A stretch of DNA of 64,000 nucleotides from Rhodanobacteraceae bacterium (GTDB lineage Bacteria; Pseudomonadota; Gammaproteobacteria; Xanthomonadales; SZUA-5), in contig JANPJV010000314.1 in assembly GCA_031425695.1 (NCBI GenBank), forward strand, positions 2,293 to 66,292, written 5' to 3'. The notes below the pieces were generated by a model. It saw only the letters and a program-made list of their open reading frames with translations, searched no databases and was not told the DNA's origin. Made by a program: the position numbers and the translations under genes. Positions 7,629-63,170 of this stretch are shown here, in pieces (within the stretch, counting starts at the first letter, position 1; each line of letters opens with the position of its first letter).

Positions 7629-7690
7629 TGGTATCGACATAAATGGGATTTGATGGTCGATTGTGGGACGTATCGAACAAGGGAAAAACG
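7629..7690. repeat. prophage left end with putative transposase-binding sites
   Basis: TGGTATCGACATAAATGGGA is terminal (site 7631-7648). A degenerate second copy, GTATCGAACAAGGGAA, lies at 7670-7685, followed by an A-rich CGAAAAG stretch reminiscent of Mu att sites. Confidence 0.5.
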
Positions 7691-7754
7691 AAAAGAGTTC
7701 GTAAGGGCGGAAAAAATTAGGCCCGAACTTTTGCGCAAAAGCGAACCTGAACGG

Positions 7755-7803: not shown

Positions 7804-8580
7804 TCAGCAGTTGATGCGGTAGATCAGCTCGCCGCTCGCCTTCTCGCGAGCCTTACCGACCTTCCCAACGGTGTACCGCAGGGCTGTCTCCACAACCGGG
7901 AAGCGGCGGAAGATACGGCGCATTTCGGGGTGGTCGTTGATGCTGAGCAAGGCCTTGCCCTGGAGCGTCGAGAACCGATCCGACAGAGCCTCGTACTCGT
8001 CGAGCCCGAAGGGCACGCCGTAGCCGGTGGTCTCCCAGTAGGGCGGGTCCAGGTAGAAGAGCGTGTGCGGCCGGTCGTAGCGACGAATGCAGTCACGCCA
8101 GGTCGAGGACTCCAGGTAAACCGACGAGAGCCGCATGTGGACGAGGGAAAGCTCCTCCTCGATCCGCAGCATGCTGAAGGGCTGAGGCGACGTTGTGGCA
8201 TAGCCGAAGGTGCGGCCCTCGACCTTGGCGCCGAAACAAAGACGCTGCAGGTAGTAGAACCGAGCCGCGCGTTGGATATCGGTCAGCGTTCGCGGGTCCT
8301 GGAGCTTTGCCCATTCGAACATCGTTCTGGAAACGAGAGCCCACCGGAACTGGCGAACGAACTCATCGAGGTGGTGCGCGACGCACCGGTAGAGGGTGAT
8401 CAAGTCGTCGTTGATGTCGTTCAGGACTTCGACCTTGGCTGGCTCGGGACGGCAAAAAAACAACCCGGCGCCGCCAGCAAAGGCTTCGACGTAGCAGTGA
8501 TGGGGTGGAAACAGCGGAAGGATGACTTTTGCGAGACGGCGCTTGCCGCCCGGCCACGGAATAAGGGGTTTCGGCTGCAC
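7804..8580 (-). CDS. dam: DNA N6-adenine methyltransferase (Dam/D12 class)
   Basis: 258 aa with N-terminal PWPGGKRRLAKVILPLFP and catalytic DPPY (FYLDPPYWETTGY). GTG start with a GAGGA Shine-Dalgarno. Confidence 0.85.
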   Translation of the reverse strand: MQPKPLIPWPGGKRRLAKVILPLFPPHHCYVEAFAGGAGLFFCRPEPAKVEVLNDINDDLITLYRCVAHHLDEFVRQFRWALVSRTMFEWAKLQDPRTLTDIQRAARFYYLQRLCFGAKVEGRTFGYATTSPQPFSMLRIEEELSLVHMRLSSVYLESSTWRDCIRRYDRPHTLFYLDPPYWETTGYGVPFGLDEYEALSDRFSTLQGKALLSINDHPEMRRIFRRFPVVETALRYTVGKVGKAREKASGELIYRINC

Positions 8581-8716: not shown

Positions 8717-8760
8717 ATCATTGCTCGCCGGCTACGCGTCTGGCTTGTGACGCGCGTCAA
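8717..8760 (-). promoter_or_regulatory. putative Mor/C-type activator-dependent promoter upstream of dam (dyad copy 3)
   Basis: Minus strand reads TTGACGCGCGTCACAAG (8760..8744; perfect 12-bp palindrome TGACGCGCGTCA at 8748-8759). A -10-like AATGAT (8722..8717) sits at the same spacing as in the copies at 22841 and 34712. Confidence 0.45.
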
Positions 8761-9107
8761 TCGAAGAGTGAGGGCTGATCCGGTGCTGCAAGTTGCTCCA
8801 GGCGCCGGATGACGCGGTAGACGTGACCGTCGGAGAGCTTGTAGCGCCGCACCAGGTCGATGATCGAAACCCCGGCCCGATAGTCCGCGAACATTCGAAG
8901 GTCTCGCTCGGACGTCAGATTTTCCATTGCCTTGCGGATGTAAACCGTCTGGCCGGCGTATTGCTGCCAAACGTCGAACATGCAGGCCTCGGCAATGTCC
9001 TGAGCCTCGGCCTCGTCGATGCAGACACGGCGTTCCATGAGCGATGCGCGCAAAGCCGCGATCGCATCCTGGATCACCCCGCGACCGTCGACGAGGCGCT
9101 CGTTCAC
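8757..9107 (-). CDS. mor: Mor-family transcriptional activator
   Basis: C-terminal HTH GVSIIDLVRRYKLSDGHVYRVIRRL, typical of the Mu Mor/C family. GTG 9107 gives a GTGA overlap with the gp16-like stop. The track ORF extends to ATG 9182, an alternative start with a 79-nt overlap. Confidence 0.7.
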   Translation of the reverse strand: MNERLVDGRGVIQDAIAALRASLMERRVCIDEAEAQDIAEACMFDVWQQYAGQTVYIRKAMENLTSERDLRMFADYRAGVSIIDLVRRYKLSDGHVYRVIRRLEQLAAPDQPSLFD

Positions 9108-9607
9108 TTGGCCGCGCTCCGACGAGTCTTGCCTGGCAGACGATCCACCGCGTTGACCCGGATTTTCAGCCGCTTGCACCACTGGATCAGGTGCTCAGCG
9201 ACCTTTTGGCGAATCTCGGCCGTGAGCATTTCCGGGGCGCCCTCCCCGACTTGCTCGGGGTTCGACTTGCCCCAGTGGCGAATCCAAGCGCGCAGCGCCG
9301 ACGGGGAACGGTCCTGGATTGCGCCGTGGCGCGCCAGGGAGCCCCACAGGGCGTAGATCAGCCGGACCTGCGGCGGTGCCTTGTCAGCGGCGGCGGGGCG
9401 CGCCTGCTGCTTGGGCTTGGGGCGCCAGCCCTTGGCCATCAGGTGCGCGAGGACCTGGCTGCGCTCGTGCGCATCCAGGTCCTTCGAGCTGCGTTTGCGG
9501 GTGACCGTAAACAGCATGTCCCGGTAGGTATCGTCGTCGAGGCCCAGATCCTTCTTGGCGATGTGGATCTGGGAGAGATCGGATTTGCGCAGGTTCGCGG
9601 CGGTCAT
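9104..9607 (-). CDS. Mu gp16/GemA-like protein (DUF1018)
   Basis: 167 aa from ATG 9607 inside track ORF 9104..10030. Signature LSQIHIAKKDLGLDDDTYRDMLF. ATGA overlap with the upstream ORF. Confidence 0.75.
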   Translation of the reverse strand: MTAANLRKSDLSQIHIAKKDLGLDDDTYRDMLFTVTRKRSSKDLDAHERSQVLAHLMAKGWRPKPKQQARPAAADKAPPQVRLIYALWGSLARHGAIQDRSPSALRAWIRHWGKSNPEQVGEGAPEMLTAEIRQKVAEHLIQWCKRLKIRVNAVDRLPGKTRRSAAK

Positions 9608-21068: not shown

Positions 21069-21953
21069 ATGCGACAGATCACAGCTAGCGTAGTGAACAT
21101 CGATGCCCATCCGCACGAGCCAGGCACCTATGGGTCCCTGATGAAGCAGCTCGTTGGCAGGAAGGTAGCTTATCGCGCGGAACGCTCGATGGTCGTGCGA
21201 GGCTTCGATGGCGATGGTCAGATACGCGGCGGAACTATTGTCACGTTCACCGACTTCGACCCAGACGCGCCCTGGTTCGACCCTGAGCTGCTAGACACTG
21301 CGGACGTCCGCGCGACCGAGGCCGCAAGAGCGGCGGTTCAGAAGATCAAGCCTTCCATGCAGGTTTTTCGCGCTGCGCTTGCCGAGATGAACGGCAGCAT
21401 TCACTGCCTCGTAGTCGAGACCAAGAATGAAGAGGGTGAATCGCTTTCGATCTCGCTCGTAGCTGAAGCGCTACGAAAGCTTGCCCTTGGCGTTTTGGGA
21501 GATGCCCCCAAAATGACCGTGAGCTTTTCTGTCCTGTCCAGCAACGACGAGGTGGAAAGACTGCTTTCAAAGCCGAACATTCAGCGCCTGCACGTCATTG
21601 TCTCGATGCCGAACATCGATGATGGGGAGGCCGAGGACAATGCTGTTCAGGAGGAATTGGAAAGGCTTGGCGCGACAAAAGAGGAACGAATCTTGACCGC
21701 CCCCGTCGCAAAGACCGGCGGCATCAAACCAGACGAAGAGTTGAAGAGGCTCGCGCGAGTTGCTTCGCGGCATGGCCGAGTAGAGGTCACCCACGGTTCA
21801 CGCGGCAAGACGAGAATTGAATCGACGTCCGACAAGCCTATTGTCGAGACGGCCAAGCCACATGATAAGGAGCCCTACTCCAGCGCCTTTAAGGGCTTGA
21901 TCAAGCAGTTCATCACTAGGCTCGCGATAGGAAAGAAGTTGGATAGCCAATGA
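21069..21953 (+). CDS. soluble 294-aa protein of unknown function, accessory gene 3
   Basis: AGGGGG Shine-Dalgarno and no TM segments. ATGA overlap with the following membrane protein. GC is visibly lower than in the phage core genes. Confidence 0.7.
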   Translation: MRQITASVVNIDAHPHEPGTYGSLMKQLVGRKVAYRAERSMVVRGFDGDGQIRGGTIVTFTDFDPDAPWFDPELLDTADVRATEAARAAVQKIKPSMQVFRAALAEMNGSIHCLVVETKNEEGESLSISLVAEALRKLALGVLGDAPKMTVSFSVLSSNDEVERLLSKPNIQRLHVIVSMPNIDDGEAEDNAVQEELERLGATKEERILTAPVAKTGGIKPDEELKRLARVASRHGRVEVTHGSRGKTRIESTSDKPIVETAKPHDKEPYSSAFKGLIKQFITRLAIGKKLDSQ

Positions 21954-22606
21954 GCGACAACGGCACCATTGACGTACTCAAGGTTGTTTGGGATATCTCT
22001 GGCGGGTGGCGGCGTATCTCACGCGCTTGGTACACCTGGGCGGCCCTGCTGATCAGCGTTCTCTGTTGGTCTCTCTGGTGGGACGCTGCCTGGTGGGATC
22101 TGTCGCTAGAGATCATCCCTGGAATGCTCGGTTTTTCGCTTGCCGGGTTTGCAATGATGTTGGCGTTTGGAGACGACCGATTCCGTGCCGTCCTTTCAAG
22201 GGCAATGGTGGTGACAGGCGGGGAAGGTACGTCCAAACATTCGGCCTTCATGGGATACGCAAGCATCTTTGTGCACTACTTGGTGGCACAGGTCCTCGGT
22301 CTCTTGCTTGCGATAATCGCCAAGGCCGAGCTGGGAATTCTCCCGCTCGTTGGTGGTACCGGGATATTTCGTTTCGCCATCGGCATTTGTCACTTCGTCG
22401 GTTTCTTCTTCGTCGTGTATTCGATTCTCATGGCCCTCGCAGCAACCCTCGCGGTTTTTCGCATGGCGCGAACCGCCGACAAAATCCAGCGGCTCCCGCC
22501 GCCCAAGCCTGATGCTGTGTCGCCAGAGGGCGAAATGTCCCATCCCGCTTCAGGACCTGTTGTCCCCGCGTCAGCTGCATTAACCCCGCCTGTCACCCGC
22601 GCATAG
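21950..22606 (+). CDS. polytopic membrane protein (about 5 TM), accessory gene 4
   Basis: 218 aa. TM helices include WAALLISVLCWSLWW, IIPGMLGFSLAGFAMMLAF, IFVHYLVAQVLGLLLAIIA and FAIGICHFVGFFFVVYSILMALAATLAVF. Pro-rich C-terminal tail. Confidence 0.7.
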   Translation: MSDNGTIDVLKVVWDISGGWRRISRAWYTWAALLISVLCWSLWWDAAWWDLSLEIIPGMLGFSLAGFAMMLAFGDDRFRAVLSRAMVVTGGEGTSKHSAFMGYASIFVHYLVAQVLGLLLAIIAKAELGILPLVGGTGIFRFAIGICHFVGFFFVVYSILMALAATLAVFRMARTADKIQRLPPPKPDAVSPEGEMSHPASGPVVPASAALTPPVTRA

Positions 22607-22835: not shown

Positions 22836-22836
22836 T

Positions 22837-22888
22837 CTCTTTGACTCACGTCACAAGACCCTAGACAGCCCTCGCTCCTAACCTGCAC
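22837..22888 (+). promoter_or_regulatory. putative Mor/C-dependent late promoter (dyad copy 1) upstream of the lysis cassette
   Basis: CTCTTTGACTCACGTCACAAGACCC...TAACCTGCAC. The dyad TGACTCACGTCA is at 22842-22853 and the -10-like TAACCT at 22879-22884. A near-identical block lies at 34708-34759. Confidence 0.5.
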
Positions 22889-22914
22889 CCGTCAATAGAT
22901 CGTGACGGGGAAGG

Positions 22915-28961: not shown

Positions 28962-29518
28962 TGGGCCGCCGTAGCAAGGTCAAGGACGCCCCTGATTCGA
29001 TCCGAAGTGAGATCGAGAAGATGCTGCGCGCGGACAAGTTCAGCCTTGAGGAAATGCGGGAGCTGCTTATCCAGCAATTCCCAGACTTGGCAGACAAAAT
29101 CCCGACGCGCAGCTCGCTCGGCCGATATCGCCAGTCGATGGGCCAGATGCTGGGCCGCATGCGCGATATCGACGCCGCTGCGCGTGTGGTGGTCGCTGAG
29201 CTTGGCGAAAACCCGGACGAGCGCGCGGGTGCACTGCTCACGCAGACGATCACCGCCCTCGCCACCCACGCGGCGCTCAAGGCCGGCGAGAAGGAGGACG
29301 GCGCGTCCATCGGCGAGGTCAAGGAACTGGCTCGCGCGGCGAAGAACGTCATGGACGCGCGGCGCGTCGGGCTCAAGGAACGGCAGGAAATCCGCGAGGA
29401 AGCGCGCAAGCAATTGGTGCGCGAGCAGCAGGAGAAGCTCGGCGACCTGGTCAAGCGGGGCACGATCCCAGCCGAGGCGATCGCCATCATCCAGCGCGAC
29501 GTCTACGGCTTGGTATGA
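28961..29518 (+). CDS. terminase small subunit (Mu gp27-like, DUF3486)
   Basis: 185 aa. MGRRSKVKDAPDSIRSEIEKMLRADKFSLEEMRELL...SSLGRYRQS matches the gp27/DUF3486 pattern. Confidence 0.7.
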   Translation: MGRRSKVKDAPDSIRSEIEKMLRADKFSLEEMRELLIQQFPDLADKIPTRSSLGRYRQSMGQMLGRMRDIDAAARVVVAELGENPDERAGALLTQTITALATHAALKAGEKEDGASIGEVKELARAAKNVMDARRVGLKERQEIREEARKQLVREQQEKLGDLVKRGTIPAEAIAIIQRDVYGLV

Positions 29519-31020
29519 ACGAGCCGGCCGTCAAGCTGTACGCAAGCCAGCGCCGCTACGTGCAGGACCGCTCGCGGTTCAAGGCGTGCATGCAGGCGCG
29601 GCAAACCGGGAAGACGTTTGGCTCCACGCTGGAGATCGTCAACCAGGTGCTTGAGCAGGAGTCAGGCGGCGGCCGGCAGAGGTGGGTGATCCTTTCCCGC
29701 GGCGAGCGCCAAGCCAAAGAGGCGATGGGCGAAGGCATCAAGCGCCACTTCCATGCCTACGGCGCCGCATTCGATTCTCTCGAGGTTCCTTGGGAAGGAG
29801 CCAAGGAAGCGGCCCTTGAGGTGCGGCTGCCGAACGGCAGCTGCATCACGGGCGTCCCTGCCAATCCCGACACCGCTCGCGGCTTCACCGCGAATGTGCT
29901 GCTCGACGAGTTTGGTTTCCACGCAGATAGCAAGAAGATCTGGGCGGCACTGTTCCCGGTGATCTCCCGCCCCGATCTCAGCTTGCGCGTGATCAGTACG
30001 CCGAACGGCAAGGCCAACAAGTTTTACGAGCTGATCAGCCAGGCTAACGACGCCGACCTGCGCCGCGAAGGGCACATCCAAGCCGGGGTGTGGTCGCTGC
30101 ACTTCTGCGACATCTATCGCGCCGTGCGCGAAGGTCTGCCGCGCAACATCGAAGAGCTGCGCCAGGGCCTCAACGACGCCGATATCTGGGCGCAGGAGTT
30201 CGAACTTCAGTGGCTGGACGAGGCCTCGGCTTGGCTCTCGTTCGAGCTGATCAACACCTGCGAGGCTGACTACGCCGGTGACCCGTCGCTCTACCAGGGC
30301 GGACCTGTGTATGTGGGCAACGACATCGCAGCGGTGCGGGACCTGTTCGTGCTCTATGTCGTCGAGGATGTCGGCGGCGAGCTCATCACGCGGGAGATCA
30401 TCACCGCGCGTCGCAAGTCCTTTGCCGAGCAAGACGAGCTGCTCGACGGGGTCATGAATCGCTACGACGTGCGCGGGCTGTGGATGGACAAGACCGGCAT
30501 GGGCATGAAGCCCGTCGAAGACGCCACTCGCCGGTACGGCGAGCACCGCGTCCACGGGGTGATGTTTACGCCTGCCAGCAAGCAGGAGCTGGCAACGAAG
30601 GGCAAGCAGGCGTTCGAGGATCGCCGCATCAAGATCCCGATGGGCGACCAGGCGCTACGCAGCGATCTCCACAAGCTCAAGCGCGAAGTCAGCGCGACCG
30701 GCATGCCGAGGTTTGTCGCCGAGCGGGATTCGACCGGACACGCCGACCGCGCCTGGGCGTGCTTCCTCGCGATCAGCGCGGCATCTGCTCCCTTTCTTGC
30801 GCCGGCCGGGGAGACCGTCGACCCGACGCCCGAGACGATGCGCCCGGTTCATGGCCGGCCAACCTCGGGCGGGATGTTCGGAAGGCTCAAGGATCGGTTG
30901 CTCGGCCGGACGCGTACGCGCCACCAGGAGCGCCCAGGCGGCGAGCCCGCGGCAACCCCATCAGAAAATTCGCAAAACGGCGGGGAGCCCATTCCGGAAC
31001 GCTCCCGAGGGGAGGTTTGA
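29515..31020 (+). CDS. terminase large subunit (Mu gp28-like)
   Basis: 501 aa with a Walker A-like ARQTGKTFG, an ATPase domain followed by a nuclease domain, and its position before the portal gene. Confidence 0.85.
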   Translation: MNEPAVKLYASQRRYVQDRSRFKACMQARQTGKTFGSTLEIVNQVLEQESGGGRQRWVILSRGERQAKEAMGEGIKRHFHAYGAAFDSLEVPWEGAKEAALEVRLPNGSCITGVPANPDTARGFTANVLLDEFGFHADSKKIWAALFPVISRPDLSLRVISTPNGKANKFYELISQANDADLRREGHIQAGVWSLHFCDIYRAVREGLPRNIEELRQGLNDADIWAQEFELQWLDEASAWLSFELINTCEADYAGDPSLYQGGPVYVGNDIAAVRDLFVLYVVEDVGGELITREIITARRKSFAEQDELLDGVMNRYDVRGLWMDKTGMGMKPVEDATRRYGEHRVHGVMFTPASKQELATKGKQAFEDRRIKIPMGDQALRSDLHKLKREVSATGMPRFVAERDSTGHADRAWACFLAISAASAPFLAPAGETVDPTPETMRPVHGRPTSGGMFGRLKDRLLGRTRTRHQERPGGEPAATPSENSQNGGEPIPERSRGEV

Positions 31021-32465
31021 TGGGTATTTTCAGCGCAGTTGCCGGTTGGATGTTCGGGTCGGGCCGATTCGTAGAATCTGCGGGCGAAACGATCGACGCC
31101 GATGATGATCAGTGGCGCCGCCTGAGCGGCGACGCGAACCGCGACCTCGCGCCAATGACCCAGAGCCGGATGCAGAAGCTGGCGGCCCACCTCTGGGAAC
31201 GCAACGGCCTGGCGAATCGGCTGATCGAGCTGCCGATCGCCTACATGCTCGGCAAGGGTTGCCGCGTCGTGGTCGAGGACGAGGAGTCGCAGAAGGCCCT
31301 CGACCGGCACTGGGCGGACGGGCTTAACAGTTGGAACCTGAAACTCCCGAAGCGAGCGCGTGAGCTCGCGATCTTCGGCGAGCAGTGCTGGATCGCATTT
31401 CGCAATCCGGTGAGCGGGTTCGTGCGCTTCGGCTATCTCGACCCGTCGCTGATCGACGACGTCATCACCGACCCCGACAACATCGAGCAGCCGATCGGCA
31501 TTCGCACGGTTGCCGACAGCAAAGGCAACAAGAAGACGTACCGCACGTTGGTCAACGTGAGCGAAGCAGCGTTCGGTCGGGTCGCGCGGGCGATGCGCGC
31601 GCAGATGGTCGACGGCGACTGCCTTTTCTTCCGCGTGAATGATCTTTCCGCAGGGCGAAGAGGCCGGTCCGATCTGTTGCCCCTGATCGACTGGCTGGAT
31701 GCCTACGACGAGTTCCTCTACGGCGAGCTGGACCGGGCCGACCACCTCCGCAACTACGTCTGGGACGTCACCCTCAAAGGCGCGGACGCGACAGCAGTGA
31801 GAACGCGCGCCAAGGAGATCCAGGCGCCGGCGCCGAACTCGGTCCGCGTCCACAACGACTCCGAGACCTGGGCGGCGGTGAGCCCGGCGCTTTCGGCCTA
31901 CGAGGCGGCGGCCGGTTCGCGCCTTTTCCGCAATCACATCCTGGGTGCGCGCTCGATCCCGCCCACCTGGTTCGCTGACGGTGAGGACGCGAACAAGAGC
32001 AACAGCCAGGGCATGGCCGAACCGACCGAGCGCGTGCTCGAACAGCGCCAGGGCTATCTCGGGTACATCCTCGCCGAGACCATGCGCTACGTGCTGCGCT
32101 CGGGCTGGAGCGCGCTCGATCGCGAGGTCACTGAAGCCGAGCAGAAGATCCTGGACTCGGTGCGCGTCGACTGGCCGCCACTGACGGCGAAGGACACGAC
32201 CAAGTACGCGTCGGCGTTCGCGCAGGTCGTAGCGGCCGGTGTCCAGGCGATCAACGAGGGGCTGTTCACGCGCGAAACCGTGACCGCGATGCTCGCCTCC
32301 CTGGCCGCGCAGCTGGGCGTTGAGGTCGACGTCGAGCACGAGCTCGAGGAAGCGCAGAAGCAGCAGTCCACGGGCGGCGGCGACCCGGCGCAGTTCGCGC
32401 CTGCCGTTATCGACGATCCCAAAGAGAACGCCCAGGCCGCGGCGGACGCCCGCGTTGAAGCCTGA
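31020..32465 (+). CDS. portal protein (Mu gp29-like, DUF935)
   Basis: 481 aa from ATG 31020 (overlaps the TerL stop), inside track ORF 30480..32465. Confidence 0.85.
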   Translation: MGIFSAVAGWMFGSGRFVESAGETIDADDDQWRRLSGDANRDLAPMTQSRMQKLAAHLWERNGLANRLIELPIAYMLGKGCRVVVEDEESQKALDRHWADGLNSWNLKLPKRARELAIFGEQCWIAFRNPVSGFVRFGYLDPSLIDDVITDPDNIEQPIGIRTVADSKGNKKTYRTLVNVSEAAFGRVARAMRAQMVDGDCLFFRVNDLSAGRRGRSDLLPLIDWLDAYDEFLYGELDRADHLRNYVWDVTLKGADATAVRTRAKEIQAPAPNSVRVHNDSETWAAVSPALSAYEAAAGSRLFRNHILGARSIPPTWFADGEDANKSNSQGMAEPTERVLEQRQGYLGYILAETMRYVLRSGWSALDREVTEAEQKILDSVRVDWPPLTAKDTTKYASAFAQVVAAGVQAINEGLFTRETVTAMLASLAAQLGVEVDVEHELEEAQKQQSTGGGDPAQFAPAVIDDPKENAQAAADARVEA

Positions 32466-32480
32466 ACCACGGAGCCAGCC

Positions 32481-32654
32481 ATGCCACGCAAGGCAAAAGA
32501 GTCGAGCGCGACGTTCAAGCGCACCAGGGACGGGTTCCGGATCGTGATGCGCGGTCAGCTCGCCAACGACTTCTTCCGGTGTCTGCTCAAGCACGCGGAG
32601 CCACCGCCAGGCGCTGCGCCCGCGGCACCAGTTGCGCCCGCAACGCCGGAATGA
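32481..32654 (+). CDS. hypothetical 57-aa protein
   Basis: Below the track size cutoff. GGAG 7 nt upstream. MPRKAKESSATFKRTRDGFRIVMRGQLANDFFRCLLKHAEPPPGAAPAAPVAPATPE. Exactly fills the portal-F gap. Confidence 0.45.
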   Translation: MPRKAKESSATFKRTRDGFRIVMRGQLANDFFRCLLKHAEPPPGAAPAAPVAPATPE

Positions 32655-32657
32655 CCG

Positions 32658-33593
32658 ATGACGCCGCTGGAAGCTTATCGCGCGGAATTGCGCCGGCAGC
32701 TGGCGGCCCTGCCGCGCCTGCAGCGCAAGACGATCGAGAGCGTCGTCGCCGAGCTGCAGCTCGCACGTACCTCGATCCTCGCTGAGCTGGCGGCTGATCT
32801 GAGTGATTCGCGCCGGGCATCGCGCACGCGGATGCTGGCCGAGGTGGAGCGGCAACTCTCGGCCTGGTCGAGGGCCGCGGGCGAGATCGGCAGCGCCGCG
32901 GCGAGCACGAGCTGGACGGCGGGGATGGAATTGGTGCGTGCACCAATCGCTGCCGCAGGCCTCGGTGTATCGGTCGGGAACCGTATCAATCCTCGCGCGC
33001 TAGCCAGCGTGCAGCAGGTGTTGACGAACCTGATCTCCGATGCGAGCAGGAGCGCGATCGCGCGCATCAACAGCGTGATCACCCAGACGCTGATCGGCAC
33101 CACGGCCCAGGCCGATGCGATCAGCCAGGTGTCGGCGATCCTTGATGCGCCGCGCAGACGGGCGCAGACGATCATCTTCACCGAGGTCGGCCGTGCTCAC
33201 GCGATGGCATCCCACGCCGCGCTGGTCGAAGCGGCTGCCCAGATCCCAGGACTGCGCAAGCGCTGGGTTAAGAGCGGGAAGATCCACCCGCGCCGCGATC
33301 ACGTCGCCGCGCACAACCAGGTGCAACTGGCCGCCGAGCCGTTCCTCGTCGCGGGCGAGCGGCTCATGCATCCGCGAGATCCGAACGGTAGTGCGAGCAA
33401 CACAATCAACTGCGGCTGCATGTCGGTGCCGCTGGTCGACGGCTCGACGCTGGGCGCCAGCACCGTGCGCATCGACCGCCGCACCGGCGAGATGACGCTG
33501 GAACGCCGGCCAGGCCTGACGCCGGCCGAGGAAGCACTTGGAATCACTCTCGACCAGGTCGCGCAAGCGGGCCTGATCGTTGTCCGCGGGTAA
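32658..33593 (+). CDS. head morphogenesis protein (Mu F/gp30, SPP1 gp7 family)
   Basis: 311 aa. RRAQTIIFTEVGRAHAMAS...HPRRDHVAAHNQV...NCGCMSVP is typical of the family. Confidence 0.8.
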   Translation: MTPLEAYRAELRRQLAALPRLQRKTIESVVAELQLARTSILAELAADLSDSRRASRTRMLAEVERQLSAWSRAAGEIGSAAASTSWTAGMELVRAPIAAAGLGVSVGNRINPRALASVQQVLTNLISDASRSAIARINSVITQTLIGTTAQADAISQVSAILDAPRRRAQTIIFTEVGRAHAMASHAALVEAAAQIPGLRKRWVKSGKIHPRRDHVAAHNQVQLAAEPFLVAGERLMHPRDPNGSASNTINCGCMSVPLVDGSTLGASTVRIDRRTGEMTLERRPGLTPAEEALGITLDQVAQAGLIVVRG

Positions 33594-33612
33594 TTCAACA
33601 GGAGACGCAACG

Positions 33613-34221
33613 ATGGATGGAACACGGGTTCGAAGTCTTTATCTGCAGGTGGCAGTCGCAATCGCGGCGCTCGGTTCCGAGCTGGGGATTGCGGGAATCA
33701 CCGGAGAGGGGCCGCGATCATTGGTATACGACGTACAGCCGCAGGGCTTTTATCGACTCGGCAAAATCGAAGAGTTCCGCGAAGAACTGTTCGCGCAGAC
33801 CGACGATCCGCTGGCGCAGCGTTTCGCGGAGGGCATGCCGGATTTCTACTTCGTCCAGGATGGCGACGAGCACGTCACGCTGACTGCCCAGCAACGCGCC
33901 CTGCAGGACTTCAACTGCAGCAACGGCAAGTTCACGATGATCGCGATTTACGGCCAAGACCCTTGGACGGCCTACGGTGAGTCGGTGGTCCAGTCGATCG
34001 ATGCGGATGGCGCAGCGGTCAACACGCGCATCCTGGTCAATGGGAAGTGCGTGGGCTTCTTTGCCGACGACACTGCGGCGCGCGGCCGCTGGCCGGCGAC
34101 CATCAATCCCAAGGCTGCCGATGCGGGCAAAGTGGCGCGAGCTGCCTACCAGCGGTTTCGGCAGAGTAATCGGGCAAGCGCGGAACCGATGCCGGCGGGG
34201 TGGGCGGGAACGCCAAACTGA
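33613..34221 (+). CDS. hypothetical protein (occupies the Mu G position but is unlike G)
   Basis: 202 aa from ATG 33613 with an AGGAG Shine-Dalgarno. Confidence 0.6.
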   Translation: MDGTRVRSLYLQVAVAIAALGSELGIAGITGEGPRSLVYDVQPQGFYRLGKIEEFREELFAQTDDPLAQRFAEGMPDFYFVQDGDEHVTLTAQQRALQDFNCSNGKFTMIAIYGQDPWTAYGESVVQSIDADGAAVNTRILVNGKCVGFFADDTAARGRWPATINPKAADAGKVARAAYQRFRQSNRASAEPMPAGWAGTPN

Positions 34222-34299
34222 CGTCCTCTTGGCGACCAGGCTGCGCGGCTTGGTCGCCGTGGCGATTAGAATCGTGCTCCCGACCGAGGAGCACATCCA

Positions 34300-34707
34300 A
34301 TGGGATCCATCTTCAAATCTGCTGAAGCAGAGTATTTAGAGACGAAAGCAAAGTCGGAGCAGCGGCGGCAGCAGAATGAAATCAAAGGGAGGCAGTACAT
34401 CGCCGTCATTGCGAACCTGCTTCGTCACGAACACGAATTCGTAAAGGCGCGACATTCGAACTCGAAAGTGGAGGCAAACGAGCTCCAATGCACGCTTTCA
34501 ATAGCAACTTCCAGTAGTCGCGATGCTCATTCGAAATTCTCGGCGTGGTTTGATGCAAGCCAAGAGCAGATGGAACTGACGGCTGTAGTTCCGCCAGCAA
34601 AGTTTGATCGGACGTGGACGATTGGGGTCAAGGACTACAAGGGGACGGAAGCAGAGGAGCTGCTCCGCGAGTTCGCCCTTGCCTATGCCGGATTCGTGCA
34701 CGGCTAG
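34300..34707 (+). CDS. low-GC moron protein, unknown function (anti-defence candidate)
   Basis: 135 aa with a GAGGAG Shine-Dalgarno. Composition is clearly AT-richer than its neighbours. Bracketed by a hairpin (34231-34258) upstream and late-promoter dyad copy 2 downstream. Confidence 0.65.
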   Translation: MGSIFKSAEAEYLETKAKSEQRRQQNEIKGRQYIAVIANLLRHEHEFVKARHSNSKVEANELQCTLSIATSSSRDAHSKFSAWFDASQEQMELTAVVPPAKFDRTWTIGVKDYKGTEAEELLREFALAYAGFVHG

Positions 34708-34759
34708 CTCTTTGACGCGCGTCACAAGACCCAACCCAAGGACCTGCTGCAACCTGCAC
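34708..34759 (+). promoter_or_regulatory. putative Mor/C-dependent late promoter (dyad copy 2) upstream of the head/tail operon
   Basis: CTCTTTGACGCGCGTCACAAGACCC...CAACCTGCAC. Perfect palindrome TGACGCGCGTCA at 34713-34724 and a -10-like CAACCT at 34750-34755. Confidence 0.5.
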
Positions 34760-34790
34760 GCTGACAAGAAGTTCACCCTTCGAGTACAGC

Positions 34791-35231
34791 GTGATGACAA
34801 AGCAGACTTCGCCCGCGGCATCGAAAGCAGCCCGCGTGCAACCAGTCCGGCCGGTTGGGGCCGAAACGCAACCCGGAGCTGGCTCGCCGCCGGCTCCGGG
34901 CTCTGCCAACCCGAATAACAGCGCCCACGGCGCGAGCCAGCCGGGTGATGCAAAGACCGGCACCACGGACCGTCCCACCGGTGGGGAGCCACCGGTGGGC
35001 GCGTCCAGCGACGCGGACAAGGCAGCCCCGAAAGCCCCCGCCTCACACAAGCTGACCAAGCACCGCGACGCGGTCAACGCTGACGTTCCCGCGGCCGTGT
35101 ACGACGCCGCCTGCAAGCTGCGCCCCGGCCTCACCGATGTGCTCGCGGCGCGCAAGTACTCCGATCACTGGGTGCTGGTAGGCATGACGGCGAACTGGGC
35201 CGGCAAGGTCGAGGTGCCGCATGGCCCGTAA
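34791..35231 (+). CDS. hypothetical protein with Pro/Gly/Ala-rich N-terminal half
   Basis: 146 aa (GTG 34791 or ATG 34794). First gene after dyad copy 2. Overlaps the next gene by 11 nt. Confidence 0.55.
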   Translation: MMTKQTSPAASKAARVQPVRPVGAETQPGAGSPPAPGSANPNNSAHGASQPGDAKTGTTDRPTGGEPPVGASSDADKAAPKAPASHKLTKHRDAVNADVPAAVYDAACKLRPGLTDVLAARKYSDHWVLVGMTANWAGKVEVPHGP

Positions 35232-37518
35232 GTCGCTGATGGCGACCGCGATCATGGCGGGGCTCGCATTTGCCGGGCGCTTCGTCGAAGCCGACGGCGA
35301 CACCGAGGGCCACTTGGTTGAGGGCTCGCTGTCGTTCGACCAGACGTCGAACCTGCTGCAGGCAGCGCTGCGCCGTCACTACGGCCTCGGCCAAGCCGAG
35401 TGGATCTATCCCGATTCGATCTACGCCGACCGCGTCATCGTGCGTCGGGACGGCAAGCTAATCGAGTTCCCCTATTCGATCGCGGCCAACAACGAGATCA
35501 CGCTCGGTGCGGCTCGCGAAGTGGTCATGGAGCCGGTGCCGATCTCCGGGCAGCTGGTTGAAGCGGTGAGGAGTGCCGATGACCAGGCGCCGACCAATCG
35601 CTTCGTGATCCGCGTCATTCGCAGCGGGCTCAGCCGCAACGGCGTGGACTACCCCGCGGCGGTGCTGCGTGAGTCGGCTCCGCTGTTTGACCGTGCGCGC
35701 GTCTGCGCTGTCAGCGACGAGGAGCACATCCGGGACCTGCCCGCCAAACGCGACGCCGGCAAGATCATCGGCCGGTTAAGCAAGCCGCGGTTCGTCGAGT
35801 CCGGTACCGGTGGCGAACTCCTCGCCGACCTGGTCGTGATCGACAGCGGCTGGGCAGACCGTTTCCGCGAGGCGATCTCGGCCGGCGCGGCTGACCTTTT
35901 CGGCTTCTCGATCGACGCATCCGGTACCTGGAAAAAGGCCGGACGTTTCCGCGAGGCCACCGCGATCAACAAGGTCGCATCCGTCGACGTCGTGTCCGAA
36001 CCGGGCGCTGGCGGTCAACTCATTCGCCTCGTCGAGGCCGTCAACCCCGCATCCCGTCACCAGGAGTCGATCATGAATCGAGCGCAAATGCTTGCGCTGT
36101 TGCAGAAGATGAACCCGAACCGGGCGGCGGCGCTTGCCGATGCGTCCGATGCGGAAGTTGCGGGCGCGTTCCGTGAAGCGTGCGAGCACGCTGCTCAGAC
36201 CAATGGGAACGGCGTAACCGCTGATGCCGTGGCCGAGCAGATCCGCATGGTGGAGGCGCGCGTCACCGCGCGAACCACGATCGCGGGCAGCGGCCTGCCG
36301 GCGCCGGCCGTCGAGCGCCTCCAGGCTGACTTCAACGGTCGCGCCAGCTTCGTCGAGGCCGACGTGACCGCGGCGATCACCGCCGAGCGTGCCTACCTGG
36401 GCCGCTTCGTCGAAACCCCGATCACCGGTCTCGGTGGCGGCTCGGTCGTGGCTGGCCAGGATCGTTCGGAAAAGGTACGCGAGCAGCTCGACCACCTGTT
36501 CGATCCCGCGCGCCGCGCCGGCTCGTTCCGCGAGGCCTACGCCGATATCACCGGCGACCGCGCGGTCACCGGCCTGCTCGCCAACTGCAACCGCACACGC
36601 CTGGCCGAAGCCCTCGGTGGCGGCCGGTTCGTGGAAGCGGTGTCGGCTGCGACTTTTGCCGAAATCCTCGGTGACTCGATCACCCGCGCGATGGTTCGCG
36701 ACTACAACCTGTCGAACATGTGGGATGACTGGCGGGTGCTGTGCGACGTCGTGCCCGTGAACGATTTTCGCACCCAGCGTCGCACCCGCATGGGCGGCTA
36801 CGGCAACCTCCCGGCTGTCGCCGAGAACGGCGCCTATGCGGCACTGACCACGCCGGGCGATGAAGAGGCGACCTACGCGGCCACCAAGCGTGGCGGCACG
36901 GAGACGATCTCGATCGAGGCGATCGCCAACGATGACGTCGGCGCCATTCGCCGCATCCCGAGCAAGCTGGCACAGGCGGCGAAGCAGACGCTGTATCGCT
37001 TCGTGCTCGATTTTCTGGCCACGAACGCGGCGATCTACGACACGGTCGCTCTGGCGCATGCCACGCACAACAACCTCGGGGCGACGGCGCTCAGCGCTGC
37101 AACCTTCGCGGCGGCGCGCTTGGCGATGCTGCAGCAGGTCGAGGCCGGCAGCACCGAGCGCATTGGGCTGGTGGCACGCCACCTGTTCATCCCGACCAAC
37201 CTCGAAGAAACGGCGTTCGACCTTTTCGTCCGCAACACCAACAACGACGAGACCTTCGTCCAGTCGCGCAAGCCCACGGCCCATGTCGTGCCGTACTGGA
37301 CCGACGCCAACAACTGGTGGGTCACCGCAGACAAGGCCGACGTCCCGCTGATCGAGTTGGGCTTCTACGGCGGCCGAGAGGAACCGGAGCTGTTCGTGCA
37401 GGACAACCCGACCCAGGGCAGCCTGTTCTCCAACGACCAGCTGAAATACAAGATGCGCCACATTTACGGCGGCGCAGTGAAGGATTACCGCGGCTTCTAC
37501 GGCGCCGTGGTCGCCTGA
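35221..37518 (+). CDS. prohead protease - scaffold - major capsid protein fusion
   Basis: 765 aa. The N-terminal third has HK97-type prohead protease features (SDEEHIRD...GKIIGRL...LFGFSIDASG). The middle is a helical Ala/Glu-rich linker. The C-terminal ~330 aa resemble an HK97-fold/Mu gpT-like capsid protein. An in-frame internal ATG at 36073 has a CAGGAG Shine-Dalgarno. Confidence 0.75.
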   Translation: MARKSLMATAIMAGLAFAGRFVEADGDTEGHLVEGSLSFDQTSNLLQAALRRHYGLGQAEWIYPDSIYADRVIVRRDGKLIEFPYSIAANNEITLGAAREVVMEPVPISGQLVEAVRSADDQAPTNRFVIRVIRSGLSRNGVDYPAAVLRESAPLFDRARVCAVSDEEHIRDLPAKRDAGKIIGRLSKPRFVESGTGGELLADLVVIDSGWADRFREAISAGAADLFGFSIDASGTWKKAGRFREATAINKVASVDVVSEPGAGGQLIRLVEAVNPASRHQESIMNRAQMLALLQKMNPNRAAALADASDAEVAGAFREACEHAAQTNGNGVTADAVAEQIRMVEARVTARTTIAGSGLPAPAVERLQADFNGRASFVEADVTAAITAERAYLGRFVETPITGLGGGSVVAGQDRSEKVREQLDHLFDPARRAGSFREAYADITGDRAVTGLLANCNRTRLAEALGGGRFVEAVSAATFAEILGDSITRAMVRDYNLSNMWDDWRVLCDVVPVNDFRTQRRTRMGGYGNLPAVAENGAYAALTTPGDEEATYAATKRGGTETISIEAIANDDVGAIRRIPSKLAQAAKQTLYRFVLDFLATNAAIYDTVALAHATHNNLGATALSAATFAAARLAMLQQVEAGSTERIGLVARHLFIPTNLEETAFDLFVRNTNNDETFVQSRKPTAHVVPYWTDANNWWVTADKADVPLIELGFYGGREEPELFVQDNPTQGSLFSNDQLKYKMRHIYGGAVKDYRGFYGAVVA

Positions 37519-37565
37519 TCTGACTGGCTGAGCTTCCGAACAACCAGCGAGCGAGCGGCAAGCCA

Positions 37566-37589
37566 AGGCGCCCCAGGGATGGGGCGCCT
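37566..37589 (+). terminator. GC-rich hairpin after the capsid gene (attenuator/terminator candidate)
   Basis: AGGCGCCCC-aggga t-GGGGCGCCT: a 9-bp stem with no T-run. Confidence 0.35.
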
Positions 37590-37611
37590 GGTCACTGACA
37601 GAGGGAACGTA

Positions 37612-37728
37612 ATGGGCTTCTGGCTGACCGTGTCGCACCTGGTGCTCGCTGCTGTGGTCCTCGGGCTGCTGTTGATTGCCCGCTGGAACATCAAGCGCCG
37701 TGGCGGCAGTTGCGGCTCTGGCTACTGA
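37612..37728 (+). CDS. 38-aa single-TM micro-protein
   Basis: Below the track cutoff. GAGGGA Shine-Dalgarno. MGFWLTVSHLVLAAVVLGLLLIARWNIKRRGGSCGSGY. Ends 3 nt before the next gene. Confidence 0.4.
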   Translation: MGFWLTVSHLVLAAVVLGLLLIARWNIKRRGGSCGSGY

Positions 37729-37731
37729 CCC

Positions 37732-38397
37732 ATGTCCCTCGCCGCCTACCAAGATTTGATTGCCGACCTGGTGCGGGACCGCGAGTCCCGGATCTCGACG
37801 GCGCAGCTCAGCGCTGCGCTACAGCGCGCCGTGCTCCGTTACTCCGATCACCGGCCGCTGGTGTTGGTCGAAGACGTCACGAGCGCGGGCGGGCGACGCC
37901 TGGCGCTGCCGTCCGAGTGGCAGGCTGGCCGCAGCCAGGTCGTTTCACTCGAATACCCCGCAGGCGATGTGCCGGCCACCTACATCGAGCCGGGCACGTA
38001 CCTGATCTATCAAGGGCCGTCGTCATCCGAGCTGGAGCTCGAATACTCGCTCAGCGCTGGCGAAGAGGTGCGGGTCAGCTATGGCCGCGCGCACACGCTC
38101 GACGACGACACCGACACCATCCCGGATCGCGACGCGCCCGCCGTAGCCGCACTCGCAGCGAGCGATCTGTGCGGCCAGATGGCGCGTTACTACGGCCAGG
38201 AAAGCGAGTCCTCGATCTCCGCTGATGCGGTCGACCGCAAGAGCAAGGCTGAGACCTACCGAATGTTCGAGCGCGATCTGCGTGCTCGCTACTTCACGCA
38301 CATCGGCATCTCCGATCGCGACACGCAGGCGGCTGGCGTCGTCGTCGCGCCTGCGCGGCCTGCCGAGCGCACCCGCATTTTCGGGCGGCGCCGGTGA
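37732..38397 (+). CDS. hypothetical head-completion/connector protein
   Basis: 221 aa, positioned after the capsid gene, with an ATGA overlap downstream. Confidence 0.6.
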   Translation: MSLAAYQDLIADLVRDRESRISTAQLSAALQRAVLRYSDHRPLVLVEDVTSAGGRRLALPSEWQAGRSQVVSLEYPAGDVPATYIEPGTYLIYQGPSSSELELEYSLSAGEEVRVSYGRAHTLDDDTDTIPDRDAPAVAALAASDLCGQMARYYGQESESSISADAVDRKSKAETYRMFERDLRARYFTHIGISDRDTQAAGVVVAPARPAERTRIFGRRR

Positions 38398-38900
38398 ACC
38401 TCTACATCGACTTCTCGCCCCTTGACCTCGGCATCCGGGTCCTCGGTGCCGGTGCCCGCGCCCGACTGCCTGCTGAGCTGGAGATTGCCGCGATCGAAGG
38501 CATGTTGTTGCTGCAGGGCGAACTGATGCAGGCATTGCCCAAAGGTGCGGGTGGTGTCGGTGGTGGTTCCGGCCTGGCCGCGAGCGTGAGCTACGGAGTC
38601 GAGCGGACCGCTTCGGGCGCCGTCGGCGAAATTGGTTCGCCGCTCGAGTACGCCGAGCACGTCGAGTTCGGCACGCGACCACACTTCCCGCCCATCCAGC
38701 CGCTGCAAGACTGGGTCGAGGTAAAGCTCGGGCTGCGTGGTGCCGAGGCGCGCTCCGTCGCACACGCGATCGCGGTCACGATCGGTCGCCGCGGCACTGC
38801 CGCCCAGCCGGTCTGGGAGCCGACGTTCACCCGGTGCCAACCAATGCTTCGCGCCAAAGTCAATGCGGCAATCGACCGCGCTGTGGAGGCCTTGCCGTGA
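38394..38900 (+). CDS. HK97 gp10-family head-tail joining protein
   Basis: 168 aa with the family motif PLEYAEHVEFGTRPHFPP. Confidence 0.65.
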   Translation: MNLYIDFSPLDLGIRVLGAGARARLPAELEIAAIEGMLLLQGELMQALPKGAGGVGGGSGLAASVSYGVERTASGAVGEIGSPLEYAEHVEFGTRPHFPPIQPLQDWVEVKLGLRGAEARSVAHAIAVTIGRRGTAAQPVWEPTFTRCQPMLRAKVNAAIDRAVEALP

Positions 38901-39661: not shown

Positions 39662-40612
39662 ATGTCGTTGTCTGCCAAGAAAGTCTTGCTCGCGGCCAAA
39701 GTCGAGGCCGCCTATGGCGTCGCCGAAACTCTGGCTGGCGCGAATGCGGTGCTTACCCGCGATCTGGAAATCATGCCGTTTGAGGGTGAGGCGCTCGATC
39801 GAGAGCTGGACCGCCCCCAGTTCGGTGCCTCCGATCGAATCCACGTCGGGCTGCACGTGCGGATCAAGTTCAAGGTCGAGCTGGTGGGATCGGGCACGCT
39901 CGGTACCGCCCCGGCCTTCGGTGATCTGCTGCAGGGATGCCGCTTGCTTGAAACCATCGTCGCGGTGACAAGTGTCGAATACAAGCCGCTCTCCAGCGAC
40001 ACCACAAGCGTGACGATGAAGTTCAATATGGATGGCATCGACCACCTGGTGGTCGGCGCGGTTGGCAACGTCATGATCGAGCTCGACGCCAACCAGATCC
40101 CGTACCTGAATTTCGATTTCATCGGGATCTACGCCGACCCGACCGCGACGGCAGCGCTCAACCCGGCTGCCGGGTGGGCGAACTATGTCCGGCCAGAGCC
40201 GATTGGCTTCGCCGCCACCACCGCGATGTCGTTCTACGGGATCACGACTGGTTGGAACCTGCGCAACTTCAAGCTGGATGTCGGCAACGACGTGCAGTAC
40301 TTCGAAGGGCCGGGCGAGCAGCTCGTCGACCTGGTCGATCGCGACGGCAAGGGCAGCCTGGTGATGCTCCAGCGCGCAGTCGGCACGTTCAACCAGTTCA
40401 CCCAGGCGCGCACCAACACCCTCGGGGCGCTGCTGATCACACACGGTACGGTTGCCGCCAATCGTTGGCACCTGTCGGCGCCGACGGTCCAGATCCTGCA
40501 GCCGAAGTACGGCGACGACCGCAACCGGGCAACGATGAACGTTGACCTGGCGTTCGTGCCGACCAGCACCGGCGACGACGAGTTCAAGTTGCGGTTCGCA
40601 TCGGCAGCCTGA
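39662..40612 (+). CDS. major tail tube protein (siphovirus type)
   Basis: 316 aa. Lies immediately upstream of the chaperone pair and the tape measure and is followed by a strong hairpin. Confidence 0.65.
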   Translation: MSLSAKKVLLAAKVEAAYGVAETLAGANAVLTRDLEIMPFEGEALDRELDRPQFGASDRIHVGLHVRIKFKVELVGSGTLGTAPAFGDLLQGCRLLETIVAVTSVEYKPLSSDTTSVTMKFNMDGIDHLVVGAVGNVMIELDANQIPYLNFDFIGIYADPTATAALNPAAGWANYVRPEPIGFAATTAMSFYGITTGWNLRNFKLDVGNDVQYFEGPGEQLVDLVDRDGKGSLVMLQRAVGTFNQFTQARTNTLGALLITHGTVAANRWHLSAPTVQILQPKYGDDRNRATMNVDLAFVPTSTGDDEFKLRFASAA

Positions 40613-40636
40613 TCGCTGGCTGACCTGTCACCACGG

Positions 40637-40656
40637 GCGCCGTCGATCGACGGCGC
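40637..40656 (+). terminator. 20-bp perfect palindrome GCGCCGTCGATCGACGGCGC after the tail tube gene
   Basis: Perfect 10+10 palindrome followed by TCGCGTTTCC. It shares the GCGCCGTCG arm with the palindromes at 7755 and 50217. Confidence 0.45.
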
Positions 40657-40696
40657 TCGCGTTTCCACCAACCGAAACCTGTAGGAACCCCCAACC

Positions 40697-53586: not shown

Positions 53587-53760
53587 AAGCCGGTGTCGGT
53601 TTCGGACGTCGGTTTCGGAGGAGTGCTCTACCGAAACCGACAACCGAAACCGAAACCGTGGTTAAGCTCGCCCCACCGCTCGCCCTCTCGCGGAACCATC
53701 TTCCCCGCCCGCTGGTCTCCTGAACACTTGAGCCAAGCCTAAGCGGGCTAGAATGTGGTG

Positions 53761-62146: not shown

Positions 62147-62893
62147 ATGAACGAGAACAAGTTTGTCAACGCGCTGCTGGCGGCCCTGGTGGTCGGCGTC
62201 GCCACTCCAGTGATTGCCGCGACCGTGGTTGCGCCGGGCACCAGCGGTGACTCGGTCAACAAGTCCCTGAGCGTGGCCGATGGCACGGCGGTCCAGAGCG
62301 TCGAAACCGTCAATGGCAGCATCGAGGTCGGCTCCGGCGCGACCGCGAACTCGGTAGAAACCGTCAACGGCAGCGTCAAGGTGGGCAACGACGTTTCTGT
62401 CGAGTCGCTGGAAACCGTCAACGGCAGTGTCGTCGCTGGCAGCAACCTCAAGGTCAAGGGCAACGTCGAAACCGTCAACGGTCGCATCGAAATTGCCAGC
62501 GGCGGCAGCATCGAGGGCTCGGTCGAGACCGTCAACGGCAAGGTCAGCCTCGATAACGTCAGCGTTGCGCAGAACGTCGAAACCGTCAATGGCGGGCTCG
62601 ATTTCAAGGCCAGCCGCATCGGCGGCAACGTCGAAATGGTCAATGGCCGCATTGATCTCGCGGCCGCGACCATCGTCGCCGGCGACCTGGTCGTCGCCAA
62701 GAACAAGAGCTTCGGCTGGAGCTGGGGCAGCAAGCCCAAGCCGCCGGTCGTGGTCATCGGCGAAGGCAGCGAAGTCCGCGGCCGCATCCTGATCGAGAAC
62801 GAAGCAACCAAGCTCTACGTCCACCAGAACGCACGCATCGGCGAAGTGGTCGGCGTCACCGCACAGCGTTTCAGCGCCGAAGCGCCGGAGTGA
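62147..62893 (+). CDS. secreted beta-strand repeat protein (VETVNG repeats; toastrack/DUF4097-like)
   Basis: 248 aa: signal peptide (LLAALVVGVATPVIAATV), then seven ~18-20-aa repeats centred on (S/N)VETVNG(S/R/K)(I/V). Confidence 0.8.
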   Translation: MNENKFVNALLAALVVGVATPVIAATVVAPGTSGDSVNKSLSVADGTAVQSVETVNGSIEVGSGATANSVETVNGSVKVGNDVSVESLETVNGSVVAGSNLKVKGNVETVNGRIEIASGGSIEGSVETVNGKVSLDNVSVAQNVETVNGGLDFKASRIGGNVEMVNGRIDLAAATIVAGDLVVAKNKSFGWSWGSKPKPPVVVIGEGSEVRGRILIENEATKLYVHQNARIGEVVGVTAQRFSAEAPE

Positions 62894-62898
62894 GATCT

Positions 62899-62962
62899 CG
62901 ATCCGAAATCTGCGATTTCGGATCGGAGCGGGACTCGATCCGAAATCTGCGATCTCGGATCG
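62899..62962. repeat. two tandem copies of a 27-bp hairpin CGATCCGAAATCTGCGAT(T/C)TCGGATCG
   Basis: Copies at 62899-62925 and 62937-62962. The first has perfect 11-bp arms GATCCGAAATC/GATTTCGGATC; the second carries one mismatch. They lie directly after the stop of 62147..62893. Confidence 0.65.
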
Positions 62963-63170
62963 GTTGGGTGAGTCGCCGGCGGGGCGAAGACGCGGTCTTC
63001 GCCGCGCCACCACTGGCACGCATTGAACACGATTTGTAAAGCCGGTCTGACGCTCTCCTTGGCGCCAGTCGAGCACTGAAACTTTTCTGTTGCCCCGCAG
63101 TCTGACTTGGCAGGGCAGCACTCCAAATCCCCGTCCCGGGATTGCTTCAGAGACAGCGAAAGGGACCTTG

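Follow-up and report, generated by a model that had tools for sequence, protein, structure and literature searches.

A probable moron-type accessory cassette in a variable slot of a Mu-like prophage

In a Mu-like prophage of a Rhodanobacteraceae bacterium, the segment at 34222/34231-34707 is likely to be a horizontally acquired cassette of about 480 bp that carries a single accessory gene of the moron type. Positions are those of the window, by which we mean the whole 64-kb stretch of DNA that was analysed. A classical moron consists of a promoter, a gene and a terminator (PMC3594210), and an earlier note on this DNA had proposed for this segment what it called the classical arrangement, in the order terminator, promoter and gene. 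That proposal is partly supported. The segment is compositionally foreign, absent from relatives and a genuine accessory insertion, but neither a terminator after the gene nor a convincing promoter was found that would make it a self-contained transcription unit.

RESULTS

The prophage and its gene order

The window is bacterial chromosome with a Mu-like prophage, which sits between host genes for cytochrome oxidase (2.9-7.2 kb) and host genes for an S41 peptidase and a phosphoglycerate mutase (57-62 kb). The early side of the prophage carries genes for an rve-like transposase, an AAA_22 (MuB-like) ATPase, a Mor-family activator and a Dam-like methyltransferase. SLT lysis, Mu gp27 homologue, large terminase, portal, short MuF and protease-capsid fusion genes make up the late side. 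The local order is portal, a 57-aa ORF, MuF, p213, the ORF under study (here called the target ORF), p146 and protease-capsid. The genes that matter for the argument are the following.

7804-8580, minus strand: Dam-like methyltransferase gene
8757-9182, minus strand: Mor-family activator gene (PF08765, E 2e-15)
32658-33593, plus strand: MuF-like head-morphogenesis gene, short form of 311 aa (PF04233, E 6.8e-7; phrog_2468), the conserved left flank of the slot
33613-34221, plus strand: p213 (also p202), the upstream accessory gene in the slot, GC 0.62 and GC3 0.73
34300-34707, plus strand: target ORF, from an ATG start to a TAG stop, 135 aa
34794-35231, plus strand: p146, a small conserved gene directly before the capsid gene, the right flank
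35221-37518, plus strand: protease-major capsid fusion gene, 765 aa (PF25209, E 3.7e-39; phrog_4523, phrog_133, phrog_15531)

Repeated cggtttcgg/ccgaaaccg motifs were seen at 53590-53660, just past the last tail gene, and ACGAAAA-type motifs at 7640-7740, near the methyltransferase end; both groups are possible binding sites of the transposase at the ends of the prophage. Between host genes, at 62890-62990, tandem palindromic units (gatccgaaatctgcgatttcggatcgg) resemble REP-like elements.

The target ORF is foreign in composition

The target ORF had been described as markedly richer in AT than its surroundings, and checks of windowed GC, GC3 and codon index all placed it as an outlier against its neighbours. 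Its GC content is 0.529, compared to 0.648 for the whole window. Only 0.06% of 408-bp windows reach so low a GC content, and the lowest value of the whole window is found at 34251. The reference set was 353 stretches, each 135 codons long, of the structural genes of the prophage. Against these stretches, the target ORF deviated in GC (z = -6.2), in GC3 (0.61 versus 0.81, z = -3.7) and in a codon-adaptation-like index (0.47 versus 0.69, z = -3.0). No other likely coding ORF of 100 aa or more in the window has so low a GC or GC3.

A second low-GC island (GC 0.57 to 0.58) was seen at 21069-22606 on the plus strand, just upstream of the first late-promoter-like element described below. It consists of a DUF4747 gene and a 218-aa ORF without a family match, gave no PADLOC match and is probably another cargo slot.

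The segment is missing from the closest relative

MuF, the capsid gene and p213 homologues served as queries and gave 138 loci in all, designated here by L numbers. One of them, L001, is an identical Logan contig with the same sequence as the window (run SRR20217183). Only L001 has the target ORF, which is missing from L137 and from all 136 other fetched loci, L138 being judged by its gene table. The flanks, in contrast, are conserved. MuF shows 74-87% amino acid identity in L006, L007, L085 and L137, and tblastn detected p146 in L006, L007, L010, L085-L088 and L137. No HTH or any other family match was found in p146, which is kept in relatives whose slot is empty. The earlier note had let its moron reading stand or fall on composition and on conservation as a core gene; because the composition is foreign and the target ORF is not a conserved core gene, every relative lacking it despite conserved flanks on both sides, the reading survives.

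The closest relative is L137, whose MuF is 87% identical at the amino acid level and whose DNA is 76-82% identical on both flanks. Window positions 32646-34195 align to L137 2773-4328 and positions 34707-34997 to L137 4369-4678; positions 34196-34706 are without a counterpart there. The p213 homologue of L137 ends in a stop codon, and 9 nt further on comes the conserved element that follows the target stop codon in the window. According to this alignment, the window-specific segment runs from just after the p213 stop, with the hairpin described below as its first feature, to the stop codon of the target ORF.

Short direct repeats are present at the two junctions (CTCTT and GCGCGGCT/GCACGGCT). 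They appear to fit illegitimate recombination, by which the cassette would have arrived, and are too short for proof at 20-25% divergence. The exact breakpoints are uncertain, because these repeats are short and the comparison genome is diverged to that extent. From parsimony and composition only, we infer an insertion rather than a deletion. The target ORF and the cargo gene of L006 both end in VH(G/R)-TAG before the element; alignment of the two 3' ends gave p = 0.12, and a common 3' end is not claimed.

The neighbouring gene p213 has a history of its own. By tblastn, it had no match in the loci first fetched except L001, and homologues were later found in L137, where the target ORF is missing, and in L138, within an unrelated phage context. 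The L138 homologue (44%; 309-938) lies beside ribonucleotide reductase, Thy1 and dUTPase genes. Because its homologues occur in two different phage backbones, p213 is an independent mobile accessory gene. A hydrophobic stretch at the N-terminus of the protein is possibly a signal for export.

The 57-aa ORF between portal and MuF (32481-32654) is also window specific and, unlike the target ORF, is high in GC. The portal-MuF gap measures 14 nt in L137, and no other locus matches this ORF (region 32450-32645).

The slot between MuF and p146 is variable

The slot was found in seven states among nine close genomes, the window included, and two of the nine are empty.

Window: p213 and the target ORF
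L137: p213 homologue alone
L006: 167-aa gene, GC 0.55
L088: extended MuF and a 79-aa ORF
L007 and L086: minus-strand ORF (a 57-aa coiled-coil in L007)
L087: 70 nt of non-coding repeat tract
L010 and L085: empty

MuF and the capsid gene lie between 350 and 2,950 bp apart in about 80 relatives, several of which carry cargo far lower in GC than their own backbone; low-GC cargo at this place also occurs in distant relatives.

The low-GC cargo of L006 (6942-7445, plus strand), from a Lysobacterales MAG, occupies a slot equivalent to that of the target ORF. Its product contains an RNA-polymerase alpha C-terminal-domain-like module (PF03118, E 1.2e-5) and a weak match, below the curated cut-off, to a Lar-like restriction-alleviation zinc ribbon (TIGR03655, E 7.5e-4). 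Judging from these domains, it could be a phage decoy for alpha-CTD.

Two relatives, L088 (3780-5291) and L071 (2281-3864), have MuF genes with C-terminal extensions of about 200 aa. In L088 the extended gene is followed by the 79-aa ORF, and its extension weakly resembles an ADP-ribosyltransferase (E 0.002, short of the curated cut-off). By their sequence, both would fit the long-form MuF polymorphic toxins, which are known mostly from other phage groups. MuF genes with C-terminal toxin domains are known to be followed by ORFs of <150 aa (PMC5576092), and on this pattern p213 would be a detached MuF-associated effector and the 135-aa target ORF a small immunity protein. The likeness lies in a variable region immediately downstream of MuF with ORFs of <150 aa and in the extended MuF forms of the two relatives. 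However, the window MuF is the short form and has no C-terminal extension. The target ORF is separated from it by p213, and a hairpin stands between p213 and the target ORF. Moreover, p213 matches no toxin family, and in other genomes the two genes are unlinked, the p213 homologues of L137 and L138 occurring without the 135-aa ORF. A toxin-immunity pair is thus highly improbable here: the MuF toxin-immunity framework applies to L088 and L071, not to the short MuF of the window.

The right edge of the slot is a candidate late promoter

The target stop codon directly abuts a conserved element, CTCTTTGAC-GCGC-GTCACAAGACCC, 17 nt, CAACCTGCAC (34708-34762, plus strand), which forms the right edge of the slot. 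Its consensus, CTCTTyGAC-N4-GTCACAAGACCC, 17 nt, nAACCTGC, has identical spacing in 8 of 8 close relatives, and the spacing is fixed in 11 copies of the element. The sequence TTGACNNNNGTCACAAG is present in three exact copies in the window, with none expected by chance; all other matches to it carry three mismatches and occur at chance frequency. Three copies of the bipartite element, TTGAC-N4-GTCACAAG followed at fixed spacing by a -10-like hexamer, were located.

22836-22890, plus strand: copy 1, before the SLT lysis/terminase operon
34708-34762, plus strand: copy 2, before p146 and the capsid gene
8741-8760, minus strand: copy 3, with its exact TTGACNNNNGTCACAAG match at 8744-8760, just after the Mor-family gene and before the Dam-like methyltransferase gene; AATGAT replaces the nAACCT hexamer

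In phage Mu, late promoters with a -10 but without a -35 are bound by the C protein at a 16-bp dyad whose centre lies at -43.5 (PMC2582627). The dyad TGAC-N4-GTCA of the element lies 32.5 nt from nAACCT; centred at -43.5, it would put nAACCT at -12..-7, which makes -11 an A and -7 a T. By analogy, the element probably acts as the late promoter of p146 and the protease-capsid gene and depends on an activator of the Mor/C family. If so, the target ORF ends one late unit and directly abuts the start of the next.

The likeness to the Mu promoters Plys, PI and Pmom and their activators Mor and C extends to several features. The spacing between the dyad and a weak -10 is right, a -35 is missing, the copies precede the lysis operon, the protease-capsid unit and a DNA methyltransferase gene, and the phage encodes a Mor-family protein. 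In contrast, the site sequence is unrelated to that of Mu, and the window yielded no more than one Mor/C-family gene.

With copy 1 (22836) as its promoter, the late transcription unit would carry the lysis, terminase, portal and MuF genes, and the slot would be its far end. Insertions at such a place would break nothing essential, so that related phages carry many different, often low-GC, cargoes.

The target ORF is very likely a gene, and its product is an orphan

The predicted product of the target ORF is a protein of 15.3 kDa with a pI of 6.5, a long predicted N-terminal helix and no transmembrane or hydrophobic segments. In a search of 5.8 billion proteins it matched only itself. An exhaustive HMMER pass over 1.84 billion representatives returned the protein itself and one other match, P0002 (E 4e-5), which was rejected as a 691-aa repetitive artefact. 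The earlier statement that the protein matches nothing recognisable therefore holds at both scales. Nothing significant was found in Pfam, PHROGs (best E 0.027), PDB sequences, PADLOC or NCBIfam, and a search of 33000-35600 against Rfam was equally negative. Megablast of 29500-38400 against 50,697 phage records gave no match, and neither relatives among the 9,143 ORFs of the related loci nor paralogues in the window were detected. The sequence searches showed no similarity to known anti-CRISPR proteins or to any annotated phage protein. Structure prediction and a fold search, both suggested in the earlier note, were run, and no confident fold came out: the model reached a pLDDT of 48.9, which is unusable, and fold searches with it (E > 4, TM-scores < 0.33) are meaningless.

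Two of these results, the lack of any relative among 1.84 billion representatives and the low-confidence structure model, would also be expected of a chance open frame in AT-richer, non-coding insertion debris. Shuffles of the region give a 145-codon open frame 6% of the time (p ~0.06), and ORF length alone is thus weak evidence for a gene. As no homologue exists from which purifying selection could be read, the target ORF might conceivably be spurious. Several observations nevertheless speak against it. A GAGGAG Shine-Dalgarno sequence (34286-34291) precedes the first ATG of the frame at the ideal spacing of 8 nt, and its pairing energy (-8.1 kcal/mol) is the strongest among 17 genes tested. 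Codon-position periodicity is significant by chi-square (p = 0.0014 for GC, p = 0.0007 for bases), and all five other frames are closed by 2 to 5 stops each. The inserted segment is filled by the ORF, which has the orientation of the operon, and the region matches no Rfam family. A chance frame is therefore improbable. On the strength of its Shine-Dalgarno pairing, its codon periodicity and its fit to the insert and to the operon direction, we regard the target ORF as very likely a real gene.

Upstream signals and expression

Three features precede the ORF within the window-specific segment.

34230-34259, plus strand: GC-rich hairpin with a 13-pair stem and a 4-nt loop, without a U-tract, the first feature of the window-specific segment
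34267-34272, plus strand: TAGAAT, a possible -10 hexamer read from the sequence, with no -35 partner
34274-34294, plus strand: 7-bp inverted repeat GTGCTCC/GGAGCAC; the GAGGAG Shine-Dalgarno sequence overlaps with its 3' arm

For the first of these, the earlier note had described an 8-bp stem at 34231-34258 that could terminate read-through from upstream. The stem is real and GC-rich, and it extends to 13 pairs if G-U pairing is included. It folds with a dG of about -24 kcal/mol (z = -3.2 versus shuffles) and ranks about 15th among the distinct 36-nt windows of the 64 kb (z = -3.9). The terminator role found no such support: neither a U-tract nor a T-run follows the stem, GTGGCGATTAGAA coming next, and the terminator scan did not list the hairpin. 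Since it lacks a U-tract, it is not a canonical intrinsic terminator. No second copy of the hairpin turned up in the window or in any fetched locus, and it is missing from L137. This uniqueness, and the lack of a transposase or an attC-sized site, lend no support to a transposon, integron cassette or REP origin.

GC-rich intergenic hairpins with little or no U-tract were also seen at 37566-37588, after the capsid gene, and at 40634-40657, after a gene ending at 40612. Such hairpins between genes, without U-tracts, may be the usual punctuation of this phage and its host.

The TAGAAT hexamer proposed as a promoter is present, matches at 5 of 6 positions, and is placed 28 nt before the target ATG. 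The TANAAT motif is depleted in the window, with 3 occurrences on both strands (128 kb) against 12 +/- 3.5 expected. However, there is no -35 hexamer 16-18 bp from TAGAAT and no extended -10, and the promoter scan returned no site within 33000-35600. A weak -10-only promoter at TAGAAT is possible. Elsewhere, at the right prophage border, a TANAAT at 53749-53754 stands directly before the ATG of a gene encoding a GspA/ExeA-like AAA_22 and peptidoglycan-binding protein.

The inverted repeat GTGCTCC/GGAGCAC was confirmed, and it pairs the GAGGAG sequence. The region 34268-34310 folds with a dG of -15 kcal/mol (z = -2.5; 4 of 200 shuffles fold as well), and the Shine-Dalgarno sequence is predicted to be about 80% paired for every 5' end tried. 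The suggested translational occlusion is to this extent supported, as a folding prediction from one sequence. We also considered promoter-specific unmasking, in which a TAGAAT-started transcript lacking the 5' arm would expose the Shine-Dalgarno sequence. This was rejected, as UCUUC (34312-34316) is an alternative partner that would keep it about 80% paired whatever the 5' end.

These signals bear on how the cassette would be expressed. It would have brought with it a GC-rich hairpin, a TAGAAT, a Shine-Dalgarno-pairing repeat and a well-initiated ORF for a soluble 15-kDa orphan. In an autonomous moron, the hairpin would stop late read-through, and TAGAAT would drive a lysogen transcript for a lysogenic-conversion factor. 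Such a unit would accord with the position of this strong hairpin at the very start of the inserted segment and with a rare TAGAAT close to the ATG; the hairpin after the capsid gene, also without a U-tract, may even reflect a local terminator style. Against it stand the missing U-tract and -35 hexamer, the negative consensus scan and the lack of any plus-strand terminator-like site after the target gene. In addition, no hairpin lies between MuF or p213 and the promoter element in L137, L010 and L085, and read-through is therefore the ancestral state. We regard full autonomy as unlikely. Instead, the signals make it reasonably probable that most expression of the target gene comes from transcripts of the upstream late operon that read through into it, at a level reduced by the hairpin and the occluded Shine-Dalgarno sequence. 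The weak -10-only promoter might add some expression in the lysogen, a contribution that we consider rather doubtful.

DISCUSSION

The cassette shares several properties with the morons of lambdoid phages of the HK97/HK022 type (PMC3594210). It is extra DNA relative to close relatives, its GC content differs from that of the flanks, and it places a single accessory gene between conserved late genes. It differs from them in that it lacks a downstream terminator and a convincing sigma-70 promoter, and in that its host phage is Mu-like rather than lambdoid.

A second comparison is offered by Mu-like phages of Pseudomonas, whose anti-CRISPR region is flanked by the Mu G homologue on one side and the protease/scaffold gene on the other (PMC3993853). 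The region has a low GC content (PMC4378225) and a promoter of its own, with inverted repeats to which Aca1 binds (PMC8633003). Like RGP G in JBD30, D3112 and DMS3, the slot described here follows late head-morphogenesis genes and comes just before the protease/scaffold-capsid unit. It holds small, low-GC, highly variable, orphan-like genes, and inverted repeats stand beside a putative promoter. There are also differences. The two inverted repeats, here and in the Pseudomonas phages, are unrelated. The slot is bounded by MuF and p146 instead of G and the protease gene, and the analogy is one of position, with flanks that are not identical. No aca (HTH) gene follows the target ORF, and the target protein has no similarity to known anti-CRISPR proteins. 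On these two grounds, we did not assign the target ORF to an acr locus.

Judged by position alone, the target protein may be a cytoplasmic protein that acts on a host or phage protein, most plausibly against host defence; we put this forward tentatively, as a reading that is more likely wrong than right. A broader version, again drawn from the positional analogy, would have the target ORF found a new anti-defence family and would make the MuF/late-promoter junction of Xanthomonadales/Lysobacterales Mu-like phages a general anti-defence locus without aca. We consider this quite unlikely; equally unlikely is its extension to neighbouring cargoes such as the L006 gene.

By itself, the target ORF is one more orphan prophage accessory gene, and its value is that of a well-mapped example, in which a relative with an empty site delimits the insertion to within about 30 bp. 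The content of the slot changes in nearly every related phage, and the operon junction in which it lies corresponds to the anti-CRISPR position of Pseudomonas Mu-like phages. Should the slot prove to be a general anti-defence locus, the genes found in it would make a short and cheap list of candidates for screening. The conserved element, for its part, yields a late-promoter consensus that can be tested in a group of Mu-like phages that has received little study.
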